From a virus (lineage: Duplodnaviria; Heunggongvirae; Uroviricota; Caudoviricetes): a DNA stretch of 13,323 nucleotides. The stretch covers positions 1-13,323 of the IMG/VR virus record IMGVR_UViG_2565956709_000005. The stretch is one strand, 5' to 3'. Shown piece after piece: positions 5,643 to 10,498 of the stretch (position 1 is the stretch's first letter; every line of letters starts with the position of its first letter). A model generated the notes under the pieces. It was not told the origin of the DNA and did not search any database. It saw only the letters and a list, made by a program, of their open reading frames with translations. The translations under genes were made by a program, and so were the position numbers.

Positions 5643-5686
5643 ACTATAGGAAATGCCTAATTACTTGTCAATAGGCTATGCCTAAT
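5643..5686 (-). promoter_or_regulatory. Predicted leftward early promoter P_L with two operator sites (O_L)
   Basis: On the minus strand: -35 TTGACA (5671..5666), 17-bp spacer, -10 TATAGT (5648..5643). Two 17-bp dyad sites of the form ATTAGGC-N3-GCCTAAT at 5670-5686 and 5645-5661, centres 25 bp apart. Shares a 23-bp exact inverted repeat with the O_R region. Confidence 0.5.
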
Positions 5687-5779
5687 AATTTGGGCGCGAC
5701 CTAATAGGTGATGGTTTGTGGGAGAGGTAGTAGGAGTTAACTAACGGGAACTAGGAATTTCCCGTCGGACCATATAAGT

Positions 5780-6256
5780 TTAAGTTCCTGTCTTGGTGAT
5801 GTTCTGGCTTTTCCGTTTTGATTCTTGATTTTTCAGATAGTTAGCTACCTTCATTTCCATTGCGGCAATGTAGGCGCGAACGTCATGATCAACCCAACTA
5901 GGCTCCGTAGCATTTCCAGATAAGAGGAAAGCCACAATTGCTCTTTTTTCATCAGAGGCGGCTTGATAAAGGCTGTTTATGTCTAAAAGTTCACTTTTTG
6001 TATCTGAAGTGGATGGGGTTGGTATGGGGTATTCGTTAAGCCCCCAATGCTCTGGACCAACCACATCAGAAAAGAAACGCCATAGTTCTGGAAGTTTGTC
6101 TTTACTTATCGAACCTTTCTTAATCCAGTCATGGATTGATGGTGGTTGGACTTTGAAATGACGTGCGATTTCCGCCTTTGATTTGACGGCTCCTGATGCA
6201 ATTTTTTTGTTAATGGCCTGCTCAATCGCTCGGCCTAAGTCTTTACCACTAAGCAT
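5780..6256 (-). CDS. racR: Prophage repressor with HTH DNA-binding domain, RacR-like, 158 aa
   Basis: ORF in track, divergent from a cro/ydaS-like gene. HTH-like segment SKAEIARHFKVQPPSIHDWIKKG. Resemblance to E. coli Rac RacR (also 158 aa) is from memory, not a search. Confidence 0.75.
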   Translation of the reverse strand: MLSGKDLGRAIEQAINKKIASGAVKSKAEIARHFKVQPPSIHDWIKKGSISKDKLPELWRFFSDVVGPEHWGLNEYPIPTPSTSDTKSELLDINSLYQAASDEKRAIVAFLLSGNATEPSWVDHDVRAYIAAMEMKVANYLKNQESKRKSQNITKTGT

Positions 6257-6283: not shown

Positions 6284-6353
6284 GTTAGGCAATCCCTACT
6301 CTCGATGTATTAGGCATAGCCTATTGACAATTGCATTAGGCTAAGCCTAATAT
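6284..6353 (+). promoter_or_regulatory. Predicted rightward early promoter P_R with operator sites (O_R) between the repressor and cro-like genes
   Basis: -35 TTGACA (6324-6329), 18-bp spacer, -10 TAATAT (6348-6353). Perfect 17-bp palindrome ATTAGGCTAAGCCTAAT at 6335-6351, near-palindrome ATTAGGCATAGCCTATT at 6309-6325, and a degenerate third site at 6284-6300. Site centres are 25-26 bp apart. Confidence 0.55.
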
Positions 6354-7113: not shown

Positions 7114-7135
7114 AAGCACGGTGTTCGGGGGTTTT

Positions 7136-8098
7136 ATGAGCAGCAAGCTTCATGGTCTTGTCTGGGAAGGGTGCGCCTTCACCGGCATGATCTTATCCAG
7201 GGTGGCGGTTATGGCCCGTCTTGCAGACTACAGCAATGACGAGGGCGTGTCATGGCCTGCCATTGAAACTATCCGGCGTCAGATCGGTGCAAGAAGTGAA
7301 TCCACAGTGAAATCGGCTATTGCAGAACTGGCGAAAGAGGGCTGGCTGACGAAGGAAGAGCGTAAGGTCGGTGGGCGTAATGTAAGCAATATCTATCGAC
7401 TTAATGTGGAAAAACTCGAAGCAGCTGCGGCGGCGGCGCGTGAGTCATATAAACCGAAAAGAAAAATTAGCCCGGCAAAAAATGACCCGTTAACAGTTGA
7501 CCCGTCAAATATTGACCCCTCAACGGTTGACCCGTCAAATTTTGATGGATCAACTGTTGATAAAAAACTGCCGATTAGGGGGGCGATGATTGACCCCGAT
7601 CCGTCAGTATTAAAACCTGATCCGTCAGATAAAAGATCTTCTTGTCCGGACGCTTCGCAACCGGACCCGCAGACGGCTGAACAGGATTTTTTAACCCGAC
7701 ACCCTGACGCGGTTGTGTTCAGTGCGAAAAAACGCCAGTGGGGAAGTCAGGAAGATTTGGTGTGCGCACAGTGGATCTGGGGACGAATCGTGAGTCTTTA
7801 CGAGCAGGCGGCCAGCTATGATGGCGAGATCACTAGACCGAAAGAACCCAACTGGACAGCATGGGCCAATGACGTTCGCACAATGCGGATGCTGGATGGC
7901 AGAACTCACAGACAAATTTGTGAAATGTTTGGGCGTCTCCAGCGGGATTCGTTCTGGGTAAAAAACATCATGAGTCCGGCAAAACTCCGGGAAAAATGGG
8001 ATGAACTGGTTATCCGCCTGGGGCGTTCGCCTGCGCAGCGTTGCGTGAATCACATTTCTGAACCGGACACTGAAATTCCGCCGGGCTTCAGGGGGTAA
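7136..8098 (+). CDS. Phage replication initiation protein (N-terminal winged-helix HTH, O-like), 320 aa from ATG 7136, with ori iterons inside the coding sequence
   Basis: N-terminal HTH-like region (...WPAIETIRRQIGARSESTVKSAIAELAKEGWL...). Central DP(S/L)N/TVD peptide repeats are encoded by the DNA iterons. Position after the cro/cII-like genes matches lambda O. ATG 7136 is preceded by a G-rich stretch; the track's GTG 7121 is the alternative start. Confidence 0.7.
   Translation: MSSKLHGLVWEGCAFTGMILSRVAVMARLADYSNDEGVSWPAIETIRRQIGARSESTVKSAIAELAKEGWLTKEERKVGGRNVSNIYRLNVEKLEAAAAAARESYKPKRKISPAKNDPLTVDPSNIDPSTVDPSNFDGSTVDKKLPIRGAMIDPDPSVLKPDPSDKRSSCPDASQPDPQTAEQDFLTRHPDAVVFSAKKRQWGSQEDLVCAQWIWGRIVSLYEQAASYDGEITRPKEPNWTAWANDVRTMRMLDGRTHRQICEMFGRLQRDSFWVKNIMSPAKLREKWDELVIRLGRSPAQRCVNHISEPDTEIPPGFRG
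7482..7553. repeat. Candidate replication origin: five 12-bp dyad iterons (TTGACCCGTCAA-like) at 15-bp phasing
   Basis: Copies at 7482 (ATGACCCGTTAA), 7497 (TTGACCCGTCAA), 7512 (TTGACCCCTCAA), 7527 (TTGACCCGTCAA) and 7542 (TTGATGGATCAA), each TTGAC-NN-GTCAA-like. Followed by an A/T-rich stretch (7555-7570) and more TGACCCC / CCGTCAG repeats to about 7628. Confidence 0.6.
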
Positions 8099-8138
8099 GT
8101 GTTAATTTCTGGTCATGAGGTAATTTTCAGGAGGGCTT

Positions 8139-8561
8139 GTGGCAAAAGTTTTTACACAAGAAGAGCGGGAAAAAATTAAAGGGCAGGTTGTTGAACTCGT
8201 ACGCCAGAGTGGGCGCGAGACGTTACGACAACTGGAAACTAAAACTGGGGCAACAAGATATCTGATGAGCGTTCTGGCCAGAGAGCTGGTTGCCAGCGGC
8301 GATGTATACAACTCCGGCTACGGGTTATTCCCCTCTGAACAGGCGCGTAAGGACTGGCAAAACGCCCGCAAAAAACTCTCGAGGGCAAAGGTGAAGAAAC
8401 CTGCTGTGGTTGATCCGGACCTTATCTGGTCATCACCTGACGGAGAAATACGTCGCTACGACAGTCGCCTAAACATAATCTGTCGCGAGTGCCGGAAGAG
8501 TGAAGCTATGCAGCGTGTACTGGCTTTCTATCAGGGTAATTTTCAGGAGGCGGTACTGTGA
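8139..8561 (+). CDS. Hypothetical protein, 140 aa, GTG start
   Basis: AGGAGG lies 4 nt upstream of GTG 8139. The 16-nt ribosome-binding-site module GGTAATTTTCAGGAGG occurs just upstream and again at the gene's 3' end. Confidence 0.55.
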   Translation: MAKVFTQEEREKIKGQVVELVRQSGRETLRQLETKTGATRYLMSVLARELVASGDVYNSGYGLFPSEQARKDWQNARKKLSRAKVKKPAVVDPDLIWSSPDGEIRRYDSRLNIICRECRKSEAMQRVLAFYQGNFQEAVL

Positions 8562-8618
8562 GTGAAATTAGCTATCAGGCTTCAATTACCGCTGGCATTC
8601 GCATCAAAGGAGAGGAGC

Positions 8619-8975
8619 ATGGAAATAAAACCAGAGGATGAGTTAAGCAATATCGTTTTATTTCCGGTAAAAGAGGATGACCCTCGTAATCAGGTTAATT
8701 TTCTTTATGAGCCATCGGAAAGACCATATTGTCATCACGCCTCTGTCCGGGTTGACGAAAAAGAGCGTCAGGTCCGCTGTAAAATCTGCGGTGCAGTTGT
8801 GGAGCCATTTGACTGGATGCTCTCTGTGGCGAAAAGAGAAACCAGACTGGCAGATGATGTAAGGCTCTTGCGTCAAGAGGAGCGGGAAAGGCGAAAAAAT
8901 ATAGAAAAGCTAATTCAGATTGAGCGTAACGCGAAAGCGCGGATACGCAGGGCGACAAAATCCAGAACTGAATAA
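8619..8975 (+). CDS. Hypothetical zinc-ribbon-like protein, 118 aa from ATG 8619 (track version starts at GTG 8562)
   Basis: Strong ribosome-binding site AAGGAGAGGAG directly upstream of ATG 8619. Cys/His cluster YCHHASV...CKICG. Basic coiled-coil-like C-terminus. Confidence 0.55.
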   Translation: MEIKPEDELSNIVLFPVKEDDPRNQVNFLYEPSERPYCHHASVRVDEKERQVRCKICGAVVEPFDWMLSVAKRETRLADDVRLLRQEERERRKNIEKLIQIERNAKARIRRATKSRTE

Positions 8976-9068: not shown

Positions 9069-9251
9069 ATGCGAAAGTTTAAAATAATTATTGAAACGGG
9101 AATAGCCGGTGGAGATTTCGAGGATGAATTCGAAGTGGATGATGATGCGACGCCTGATGAAATACATGACGAAGCAAAAGATATTTTCTTTAACTACTGC
9201 AATTACTCATATCACGAAATAAAAGACGAAGAGGAAGAACAAAATGGCTGA
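9069..9251 (+). CDS. Very acidic small protein, 60 aa (20 Asp/Glu against 5 Lys/Arg), unknown function
   Basis: ORF in track. AGGAGG (9040-9045), then a GC hairpin (9046-9061), then ATG 9069. Composition counted by hand. Confidence 0.5.
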   Translation: MRKFKIIIETGIAGGDFEDEFEVDDDATPDEIHDEAKDIFFNYCNYSYHEIKDEEEEQNG

Positions 9252-9420
9252 TTTTGGTTCAACTAAATACAACGTCAGTTTTGAAGAATGGCATGAACTG
9301 TTAATGGACTATGCAGAGTTACGTGGTGGCAGTGCTGCTGATGCTGAAGCATGGCGTGATGATTATGAAGCAGGAAAAACTCCGGTCGAAGCATATTGTG
9401 ATGAGTGGGGCGATGAATGA
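9244..9420 (+). CDS. Acidic small protein, 58 aa (16 Asp/Glu against 4 Lys/Arg); absent from the ORF track
   Basis: Hand-translated: MADFGSTKYNVSFEEWHELLMDYAELRGGSAADAEAWRDDYEAGKTPVEAYCDEWGDE. Start overlaps the upstream stop (ATGGCTGA) and its stop overlaps the next ATG (ATGA). Confidence 0.45.
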   Translation: MADFGSTKYNVSFEEWHELLMDYAELRGGSAADAEAWRDDYEAGKTPVEAYCDEWGDE

Positions 9421-9733
9421 GCGAGGTTAATTATCAGGAAGGGCATGAAACGGCGGGGCAAGCAAAAACAGTGGCATGGCGATATCGCTACGTGAAAAAA
9501 AAGGCGTTACGGACTTTCAGGGGAAGTAGTGGTCTGGTGACTGGAAATATGTACCGAAAAAAGAGGATTGTAACGACAGGCCGAACTATGAAATTCAGGC
9601 CTTATTCACTGCCCCGCCAGTCCCGGTTACATCAGAAGAACTGGTTAAAGCTGTGCACTTTTATGAACAACTAAAACGCGAAAATCCACCAGCATCCGGA
9701 AACCTGATTACAGATTCCCAGATAAGGCAATGA
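9417..9733 (+). pseudogene. Disrupted or recoded gene: translationally coupled start at 9417, A8 run with A_AAA_AAG heptamer, protein-like coding in the -1 frame downstream, in-frame TAG at 9527-9529
   Basis: Frame 0 from 9417 is open to 9674 but its C-terminal half is compositionally odd (K/R-rich). The -1 frame from 9530 to 9733 reads protein-like (WSGDWKYVPKKEDCNDRPNYEIQALFTAPPVPVTSEELVKAVHFYEQLKRENPP...) but has no start codon and follows a TAG. Slippery heptamer at 9497-9503. Confidence 0.3.
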
Positions 9734-10166: not shown

Positions 10167-10221
10167 GACTGCGGGTGCTTGAGGCTATCTGTCTCAGGCA
10201 TGAACACCAAAAGGCAGATAG

Positions 10222-10295
10222 AGAAAAGCCCCAGTTAACATTACGCGTCCTGCAAGACGCTTAACATTAATCTGAGGCCATATCTATGCTCTACA
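10222..10295 (-). ncRNA. sok: Predicted Sok-like antisense RNA covering the mok ribosome-binding site and start codon
   Basis: Inferred from hok-locus architecture. Minus-strand terminator-like structure (hairpin GCGUC...GACGC nested in a GGCCUCAG/CUGGGGCU stem, then UUUUCUCU) ends near 10222. Weak candidate promoter on the minus strand (-35 TTGCCT 10329..10324, -10 TAACCT 10306..10301). Boundaries approximate. Confidence 0.35.
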
Positions 10296-10498
10296 CACGT
10301 AGGTTAGCCTCTTACGTGCCGAAAGGCAAGGAGAAGCAGGCTATGAAGCAGCAAAAGGCGATGCTAATCGCCCTGATCGTCATCTGTTTAACCGTCATAG
10401 TGACGGCACTGGTAACGAGGAAAGACCTCTGCGAGGTACGAATCCGAACCGGCCAGACGGAGGTCGCTGTCTTCACAGCTTACGAACCTGAGGAGTAA
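10286..10498 (+). CDS. mok: Mok-like reading frame (in-frame N-terminal extension of Hok), 70 aa
   Basis: ORF in track. Starts 19 codons upstream of hok in the same frame, an arrangement I recall for MokC/HokC. GAGG lies 8 nt upstream of ATG 10286. Confidence 0.6.
   Translation: MLYTRRLASYVPKGKEKQAMKQQKAMLIALIVICLTVIVTALVTRKDLCEVRIRTGQTEVAVFTAYEPEE
10343..10498 (+). CDS. hok: Hok/Gef-family type I toxin (small membrane-depolarising peptide), 51 aa, HokD/RelF-like
   Basis: Sequence MKQQKAMLIALIVICLTVIVTALVTRKDLCEVRIRTGQTEVAVFTAYEPEE has the Hok/Gef signature (N-terminal transmembrane helix, ...LVTRKDLCEV.IRTG..EVA.F.AYE...). AAGGAG lies 10 nt upstream. Confidence 0.88.
   Translation: MKQQKAMLIALIVICLTVIVTALVTRKDLCEVRIRTGQTEVAVFTAYEPEE

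Follow-up and report, generated by a model that had tools for sequence, protein, structure and literature searches.

The question raised by this locus is whether an exact short repeat on both sides of a prophage gene records the insertion or exchange of that gene, as the first-pass annotation of the sequence had proposed, or whether it belongs to the ordinary expression signals of the operon in which the gene lies. The window, i.e., the whole stretch of 13,323 nucleotides that was analysed, carries the 16-mer GGTAATTTTCAGGAGG in two exact copies on the + strand, at 8119-8134 (copy 1) and at 8535-8550 (copy 2), and a gene for a 140-aa protein lies between them. The pair is the longest exact dispersed repeat of the window, the remaining exact repeats being of 13 nt, and by our estimate a random sequence of 13.3 kb would hold ~0.02 exact direct repeats of 16 nt. 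When up to 3 mismatches are allowed, the 16-mer matches the window three times against 0.10 expected, and at least three such matches were reached in 0 of 200 dinucleotide-preserving shuffles. The shuffles and the comparison with the other repeats of the window rule out chance as the source of the pair. The 40-nt flanks of the two copies are dissimilar (local-alignment shuffle p = 0.77 for the left and 0.98 for the right flanks), so the repeat has sharp ends, and we rejected an extended or degenerate repeat reaching beyond the 16 nt. The third match, GTTAATTATCAGGAAG (9426-9441, + strand, 3 mismatches), codes for V-N-Y-Q-E in the N-terminus (MSEVNYQE) of a second ea22-like ORF, which starts at ATG 9417 in an ATGA overlap with the ORF before it and is labelled by RefSeq as a frameshifted pseudogene; it is probably not part of the repeat feature. 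A degenerate TAATTTCTGG is also seen upstream of copy 1, at 8103-8112, and is not significant on its own.

The part of the window from 7900 to 8800 is 100% identical to a prophage in an E. coli ST648 chromosome, and related sequence is present in 4197 of 5426 complete E. coli genomes. The locus is the polycistronic early-right operon of a Rac-like lambdoid prophage. In the identical ST648 locus, RefSeq annotates RacR on the minus strand (equivalent to 5780-6256), and on the + strand a YdaS-like HTH protein, a YdaT-family protein, an HTH (O-like) protein, a DUF977 protein and a hypothetical gene. The O-like replication initiator gene (7121-8098, + strand; PHROG 391, E 2e-115) is an annotated CDS there, with a RefSeq start equivalent to window position 7136, and is the upstream neighbour of the 140-aa gene. 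Its last ~60 nt, from ~8036 onwards, are common to many relatives with otherwise different O-like proteins. Between its stop codon and copy 1 lies a spacer of 20 nt (8099-8118, + strand), of which the last 9 nt are GGTCATGAG. On the other side of the 140-aa gene, a 118-aa gene at 8619-8975 (+ strand; PHROG 1621; RefSeq hypothetical CDS equivalent to 8619-8975) shows a weak zinc-ribbon match that stays below the Pfam cut-off.

The 140-aa gene itself (8139-8561, + strand; RefSeq "DUF977 family protein") is a full-length member of the DUF977 / PHROG 142 family, called "LygF" in phage records. Its product matches PF06163 over residues 1-136 with 99.2 bits (cut-off 22.1; E 2.7e-28) and PHROG 142, "Ren-like exclusion protein", with E 7e-48. 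lygF occupies the ren position, directly after the replication genes, and shares this position together with the DUF977/PHROG 142 match with the DUF977/Ren family of phage lambda Ren and E. coli K-12 Rac YdaW. LygF and a Ren protein both end in ..CRECR.SxAM.RVLAFY.GNFQ, and the C-terminal 25 aa of this motif-bearing end (residues 112-136) are 72% identical to Ren of phage PhiR30_1. Unlike this shared end, the N-terminal ~95 aa of LygF and Ren differ, as does their length (140 against 97 aa), and the similarity of LygF to a Ren protein is limited to the C-terminal 25 aa. Distant DUF977 genes were sought in other genera by a genome scan and a protein search, which gave only Escherichia and Shigella plus probably contaminated MAGs; the exception from the search beyond Escherichia/Shigella lygF is the Ren homologue in PhiR30_1. 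Our literature search found no description of this repeat or of a LygF function, and Rac ydaW is among the blockers of a retron toxin in a preprint screen (10.1101/2020.06.22.160242).

The position and composition of the two copies point to ribosome binding. Both contain AGGAGG, which is complementary to the 3' end of 16S rRNA; against ACCUCCUUA, the sequence of that rRNA tail, the computed Shine-Dalgarno duplex energies are -10.8 kcal/mol for copy 1 and -10.3 kcal/mol for copy 2, and these are, together with that of the DUF968 gene, the strongest of the operon. Copy 1 forms the leader of lygF, with its Shine-Dalgarno AGGAGG at 8129-8134, and ends 4 nt before GTG 8139, a start that is backed by the RefSeq annotation and by the DUF977 profile, which aligns from residue 1. 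Whether the preceding gene is O-like, DnaC-like or P-like, the copy-1 leader remains attached to lygF. Copy 1 is thus predicted to be the ribosome-binding site of lygF. A spacing of 4 nt between the Shine-Dalgarno sequence and the start codon is shorter than the usual optimum, and this counts against the explanation that we favour below. Copy 2 lies inside lygF, where it codes for G-N-F-Q-E(A) in the tail ...FYQGNFQEAVL* and also supplies a Shine-Dalgarno site; it ends 7 nt before GTG 8558 and 11 nt before GTG 8562. GTG 8558 overlaps the lygF stop codon as GTGA (8558-8561), and this overlap is kept across downstream gene types. The main observations of the first-pass annotation are borne out by these data: the two 16-nt copies are exact, each stands just upstream of a GTG, and the second encodes the C-terminus of the 140-aa protein. 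Its description of the pair as a ribosome-binding-site module on both sides of the gene holds for the Shine-Dalgarno pairing, for lygF as the gene predicted to be served by copy 1, and for the genes that copy 2 would serve in relatives, but in the window itself copy 2 heads only a relic.

The role of copy 2 is best seen in these relatives. Among 186 non-identical lygF loci, the GTG of the GTGA overlap heads at least 5 downstream gene families, with ORFs of 66-192 aa. These include DUF4406 (99 aa), a methyltransferase-like protein (118-162 aa, with Pfam Methyltransf_11 just under the cut-off and the RefSeq name "class I SAM-dependent methyltransferase"), a protein starting "VSESKC" (84-88 aa) and ead/Ea22-like proteins (66-192 aa). 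The alternative lygF tails (GNVRYFRRY*, GDVRYLLK*, GNFF* and RRRFR*) have neither a Shine-Dalgarno site nor a GTG-headed long ORF. Because the GTG opens long ORFs in the relatives, and because the tails that lack the Shine-Dalgarno site also lack such an ORF, copy 2 is most readily understood as a translational-coupling junction embedded in the last lygF codons. At the level of sequence, both copies have all the properties of a Shine-Dalgarno/translational-coupling junction, and translation would be expected to initiate at GTG 8139 and at the GTG of the GTGA overlap. In many respects they resemble the coupling junctions of the early and nin regions of lambdoid phages, which have the same AGGAGG with a U-rich stretch upstream (the spacer being 4-7 nt here), the same stop/start overlap (GTGA here, ATGA at 9417), and a site that lies inside the last codons of the upstream gene. 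They differ from ordinary junctions of this kind in that two sites at a distance of 416 nt share an identical stretch of 16 nt, and in that the second site of the window feeds a relic of 27 codons and no full gene. A programmed frameshift or readthrough at the lygF stop was rejected upon inspection of the sequence, since CUG-UGA-G allows no good re-pairing.

To place the two junctions in their genomic context, we gathered 80 viral loci by LygF similarity, 120 loci by the 16-mer, 13 loci in reference genomes and 108 loci in metagenomes. Homology to the window breaks at three places. In 78 loci the break lies at ~8036, within the final 60 nt of the O-like gene, in 37 loci it lies at 8110-8149, and in 126 loci at 8540-8579. 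The mosaic joints thus cluster beside both copies of the 16-mer. Across 196 non-identical loci, four upstream contexts (O-like, 149; DUF1627, 31; DnaC/IstB-like, 11; lambda-P-like, 2) reassort freely with at least 10 downstream states. Every locus with the copy-1 leader runs on into a DUF977 gene, the leader being seen before lygF only, and between the copies only the allele of the N-terminal domain of lygF varies. Either copy can also be missing: the DUF1627-lygF context has a diverged leader, GTGATTGCCGGAGG, without copy 1, and the alternative lygF tails are without copy 2. In the relatives that share the gene order of the window, both copies are exact in 21 of 32 non-identical loci, and one copy carries 1-3 mismatches in the other 11. 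The exactness of one copy is not associated with that of the other (Fisher p = 0.17), and these loci therefore gave no sign of concerted evolution of the two copies. Together with the junctions on either side, lygF behaves as a conserved hinge between variable replication modules on its left and accessory genes on its right. The locus fits joints that survived at gene boundaries, together with homologous exchange through the conserved block of ~540 nt from 8036 to 8579, better than it fits exchange at the 16-mers.

These results bear directly on the claim that the pair of 16-mers marks lygF as an inserted or exchanged cassette, which we do not uphold: deletion and tandem joints were not found in the searches given below, lygF is constant, and it is the flanks that vary. 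The check proposed with that claim, i.e., whether the genes between the copies differ among related prophages, gave DUF977 in every case, with variation in the flanking genes instead. The claim was also open to refutation through relatives with the same gene order and no repeat; of the 32 non-identical relatives with this order, 11 have mismatches in one copy, which we count against the claim. In its most developed form, the cassette reading would make the 16-mer a boundary leader comparable to the linkers of Botstein and Campbell or to the PeSLs of T4-type phages, with short-homology recombination (e.g., of the RecE/RecT type) moving genes between such leaders and lygF as one of the cassettes. 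The proposal that modules are exchanged by way of conserved linkers at their flanks is an established one, and for PeSLs such exchange has been shown experimentally (PMC2839356). The clustering of breakpoints at both copies agrees with it, as do the many different genes joined to lygF directly after copy 2 and the alternative lygF tails, which diverge inside the 16-mer or just to its left. Furthermore, a near-copy of 14/16 nt, GTTATTTTTCAGGAGG-N6-GTGA, ends an unrelated DUF4406 gene before ea22-like genes in phage 689R5 and others, a hint of a common leader that travels together with the genes behind it.

Recombination between two such leaders should leave products behind, and we searched for them with exact patterns, by which diverged joints could be missed. 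A deletion joint (left context of copy 1, 16-mer, 5-9 nt, GTGA) was found 0 times in 2.9 million viral contigs and 0 times in 241 million metagenome records, in which a control pattern finds 108 normal copy-1 junctions; a tandem joint, sought in viral contigs only, also gave 0 matches. Six loci had the 16-mer without a lygF match, and these are three truncated contigs and three unrelated chance matches. The repeat of 16 nt is shorter than the minimal pairing segments of Redbeta (23-27 bp) and RecA (31-34 bp) (PMC3945230), and the flanks of the copies offer no further homology. The gene between the copies is always DUF977, the copy-1 leader stands before lygF only, and lygF is also found where either copy 1 or copy 2 is missing. 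Finally, the gp19-ea22 junction of phage ArgO145 has the AGGAGG-caacca-GTGA part of the arrangement without the GTAATTTT part, which counts against a shared leader. Taken against the points in its favour, these data make recombination at the 16-mers an unlikely account of the repeat. We also rejected the target-site duplication of a mobile element, as lygF is all that lies between the copies, the coding sequence in copy 2 is native and common to Ren, and no unoccupied sites were found.

The comparison with the two known linker systems leads in the same direction. Like the Botstein/Campbell linkers (PMC2839356), the locus has the same short conserved sequence at module boundaries, it lies in a mosaic lambdoid region, and joints cluster adjacent to the conserved sequence. 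In contrast to them, the homology is of only 16 nt, the copies enclose no alternative modules, searches for empty or tandem alleles found none, the two copies seem to differ in origin, and lygF is a conserved hinge and not an exchanged module. PeSLs are ~100-bp promoter-stem-loop-SD units that flank ORFans, and recombination between them gives empty sites and minicircles (PMC2839356). As in the PeSL cassettes of the T4-type phages RB49 and phi1 (PMC2839356), a repeated regulatory sequence with a Shine-Dalgarno site is here found around a small accessory gene in a plastic region. PeSLs, however, have a length of ~100 bp, a sigma-70 promoter, a terminator stem-loop, empty-site alleles and minicircles, none of which were found here; between 7800 and 9100 we detected 0 promoter-like sites and 0 terminators on the + strand. 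The same sequence on both sides of a module is the only feature of linkers and PeSLs that the locus has. The repeat is too short, no allele was found in which the module is absent or in tandem, no other module lies between the copies, and neither a promoter-like site nor a + strand terminator was detected.

If the copies are not the ends of a cassette, their 16-nt identity must be accounted for through the origin of each. Ren of PhiR30_1 ends ..VLAFYRGNFQ*, coded by GGCAATTTTCAATAG, and since this protein ends in GNFQ, the first 12 nt of copy 2 correspond to native Ren/LygF coding sequence. What copy 2 and its surroundings have beyond these 12 nt is GAGG and a few codons up to GTGA. Copy 1 has other affinities. 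The 3' end of the DnaC-like gene reads ..AAGTAATTTT.. (..GTG AAG TAA TTTT..), whether DUF1627 or lygF comes next; the DnaC-lygF junction is AAGTAATTTCAGGAGG, and in the P-like context a fossil of the DnaC-like 3' end, TTGTGAAG, is kept beyond the stop codon of the P-like gene. It is with the stop-codon region of the DnaC-like gene that the left part of copy 1 aligns. The spacer end GGTCATGAG agrees with the DnaC-like 3' end GGTTGTGAA at 6 of 9 positions (p = 0.01) and with the flank of copy 2 at 2 of 9; we count this match of flank positions, which ties copy 1 to the DnaC-like 3' end with only p = 0.01, as a weak point. The left part of copy 1 would most likely descend from the DnaC-like stop-codon region, and the two copies seem to have different sequence ancestry.

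A coincidence is left over, as the 8-nt GTAATTTT abuts CAGGAGG twice. We estimate the probability of this under independent derivation at ~1e-3 to 0.2, depending on how far A/U-richness was selected, so it is improbable under independent derivation, and common descent of the copies, or conversion between them, would account for it. On this ground we retained two rival explanations of the identity, namely that copy 1 descends from the 3' end of a lygF-type gene, or that a portable leader is common to the copies. According to the first, the leader of lygF would be the fossil 3' end of an upstream tandem Ren/LygF-type gene, the body of which was later replaced by O-like, DnaC-like or P-like modules. 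Such a duplication would explain the match over 16/16 nt, including the 12 nt that are native G-N-F-Q codons common to Ren, and the sharp boundaries fit selection that kept just the functional ribosome-binding site. We regard it nevertheless as quite improbable. No extant tandem of Ren/LygF and lygF is present among 310 loci with the C-terminal domain, and the sole locus with two copies (L189) consists of two prophage fragments joined by IS elements. The tandem-joint pattern was likewise not found in viral contigs, and the left flank of copy 1 with GTAATTT finds a better alignment in the stop region of the DnaC-like gene, which is there irrespective of the gene that comes next.

The second, more speculative proposal is that GTAATTTTCAGGAGG and its near-copies after DnaC-like, lygF and DUF4406 genes are a portable leader, the lambdoid counterpart of PeSLs, at which a RecE/RecT-type annealing system belonging to the prophage itself would exchange accessory genes by way of very short homology; lygF would then be flanked by two such leaders, and the row of DUF4406, methyltransferase and ea22-like genes would have been built in this way. 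We give this proposal low odds. Were the leaders genuine handles for recombination, the locus would have a bearing on an old dispute, summarised in PMC3945230, over whether phage mosaicism comes about through linkers or through illegitimate recombination. A shared cis-regulatory operator, at which one factor, either a small RNA or a repressor of translation such as perhaps LygF itself, would bind to both 16-mers and co-regulate lygF and the downstream gene, is very improbable: the left half, GGTAATTTT, is almost invariant in the 149 loci of the O-like context while the Shine-Dalgarno half varies (CAGGAGG or AAGGGGG), a weak point in favour as these are close relatives, but the window holds no reverse-complement partner of the 16-mer for long-range pairing within 3 mismatches, neither copy matches an Rfam family, the RNA around both copies folds no better than shuffles (z-scores ~0) and shows no conserved structure, the two copies vary independently among genomes, and other lygF lineages have diverged leaders.

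Overall, we favour, with a probability of roughly 0.6, the explanation that the two copies are Shine-Dalgarno junction sequences of the prophage operon and that their 16-nt identity is not a scar of insertion or exchange. Under this explanation, copy 1, a U-rich stretch with AGGAGG placed 4 nt before GTG 8139, would serve as ribosome entry for lygF, and copy 2, in which the conserved G-N-F-Q codons run into AGGAGG, would pass ribosomes on to whichever gene lies downstream. A DnaC-like gene (..GTG AAG TAA TTT..) may once have preceded lygF, and the leader between the O-like gene and lygF would be the remnant of that junction. As both copies would serve weak GTG starts, they could have been held to the same form, U-rich plus AGGAGG, and a short gene-conversion patch may have sharpened their match further. 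The pile-up of mosaic joints beside both copies would follow if, in lambdoid phages, joints persist only where genes meet.

The repeat is thus real and non-random, and it is ordinary biology, i.e., two strong ribosome-binding sites at the junctions of a mosaic operon. It matters little beyond annotation, where it suggests that two ribosome-binding sites of separate history can leave a prophage gene with a striking exact repeat on both sides, and that such a repeat should be called an insertion scar only when empty sites are found as well. The locus is also a small, clean illustration of the way in which the accessory genes of lambdoid phages are linked, namely by junctions in which stop and start overlap and the Shine-Dalgarno site lies within coding sequence.

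The Shine-Dalgarno reading also explains an unannotated ORF in the window. GTG 8558 opens only 27 codons there, VSEISYQASITAGIRIKGEEHGNKTRG* (8558-8641, + strand), an ORF whose start overlaps the lygF stop and whose end overlaps the start of the next gene. The undeleted ea22-like protein of phage ArgO145 starts VSKIDYQEL... and ends ...LAGIRIKGEEHGNKTRG*; its GTG start, which is preceded by an AGGAGG of its own, is the one that we infer, the record annotating an earlier start. This gene ends 20 nt beyond the ATG of the PHROG 1621 gene, the one that also follows in the window. By comparison with the full-length gene of ArgO145, the 27-codon ORF of the window is an in-frame internal deletion of an ea22-like gene, so that the gene downstream of copy 2 has decayed here to a relic. 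The 118-aa gene that follows has a predicted start of its own: the PHROG 1621 profile begins at residue 20 of the ORF opened by GTG 8562, RefSeq places the start at the equivalent of 8619, and a separate AAGGAG site stands 6 nt before this ATG. We rejected copy 2 as the ribosome-binding site of this annotated gene on these grounds, and copy 2 would therefore not serve the next full-length gene in the window. The 27-codon form is found again in ~45 non-identical loci.

LygF, the 140-aa DUF977/Ren-like protein encoded at 8139-8561 (+), is a mosaic. At least three types of N-terminal domain, about 50% identical over ~95 aa, were found among the collected loci (the window at 8139-8561; L087, L127, L136 and L189), and the C-terminal ~45 aa are nearly invariant across these types (LPDGEIRRYDRR.NIICRECRKSE.MQRVLAFYQGNFQE), with a cluster of breakpoints within the gene at ~8430. 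The upstream O-like proteins (325, 339 and 358 aa) differ in their bodies and have only their last ~20 residues in common (..QRCVNHISEPDTEIPPGFRG*, window 8036-8098), and in 78 loci homology to the window starts at ~8036. Within the O-like gene of the window, four iteron-like repeats with 15-nt spacing and the core TTGACCC (7462-7536) constitute a probable replication origin.

The unannotated 27-codon ORF following lygF (8558-8641, VSEISYQASITAGIRIKGEEHGNKTRG*) is an ea22-like gene with an in-frame internal deletion, in which the first 8 and the last ~19 codons are kept. Its start shares the GTGA with the lygF stop, and its end lies 20 nt into the next gene, that of PHROG 1621. An ORF of this 27-codon form, differing in some amino acids, recurs in ~45 non-identical loci, and it may therefore be retained as a coupling ORF. 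lygF and the PHROG 1621 gene (together 8139-8975) are also in one frame, separated by a single TGA (8559-8561) and otherwise stop-free up to the ATG at 8619, so that readthrough of this codon would yield a LygF-PHROG1621 fusion. This arrangement is probably meaningless because its estimated probability by chance is ~0.13.

A second ea22-like N-terminus (MSEVNYQE) is found at 9417-9685, annotated in RefSeq as a frameshifted pseudogene, and an ATGA overlap joins its start at 9417 to the ORF at 9244-9420. The apparent third copy of the 16-mer, at 9426-9441 with three mismatches, corresponds to its V-N-Y-Q-E codons. Phage ArgO145 carries an intact gene (MSEIDYQALRE...) at the junction matching window position 9417.

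Near-copies of the motif also occur at the end of an unrelated gene. In phage vB_EcoS-689R5 (L215, 2690-2720), a DUF4406 gene ends in ..AVIFQEANSE*, with GTTATTTTTCAGGAGG-caaaca-GTGA at its 3' end, in which GTTATTTTTCAGGAGG is identical to the motif at 14 of 16 positions and an ea22-type gene is next downstream; DUF4406 ends with a near-copy were also seen in L200, L175 and L172. The Pfam DUF4406 domain stops at ..VIF, leaving the QE... tail and the SD outside it. In the window itself, a degenerate motif core (TAATTTCTGG, 8103-8112) lies 18 nt upstream of copy 1, where relatives have TTATTTCAGG, and ATTT(T)C[AT]GG occurs 8 times versus ~1.1 expected from mononucleotide shuffles.

Locus L189 (2860-10668) consists of two prophage fragments, each with a lygF, which IS3- and IS1-type elements have truncated and linked together; their gene orders are O-DnaC-DUF1627-lygF-relic-PHROG1621 and DnaC-lygF-relic-PHROG1621. 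Four other lygF loci (L202, L203, L205 and L206) come from MAGs that bear the labels Collinsella, Bacillota and Veillonella parvula; they are 90-95% identical to the E. coli prophage, and their presence there is almost certainly binning contamination.

Elsewhere in the window, a perfect 23-nt inverted repeat (TTGTCAATAGGCTATGCCTAATA, arms at 5665-5687 and 6308-6330) flanks racR, which encodes the repressor on the minus strand (5780-6256), and both arms are operator-like sites, one on each side of the gene. A hok/sok toxin-antitoxin locus, recognized by Rfam and Pfam, is located at 10173-10498, comprising sok (10173-10348), which scores 117 bits in Rfam, and a Hok/Gef protein of 51 aa (10343-10498; Pfam E 1e-23).
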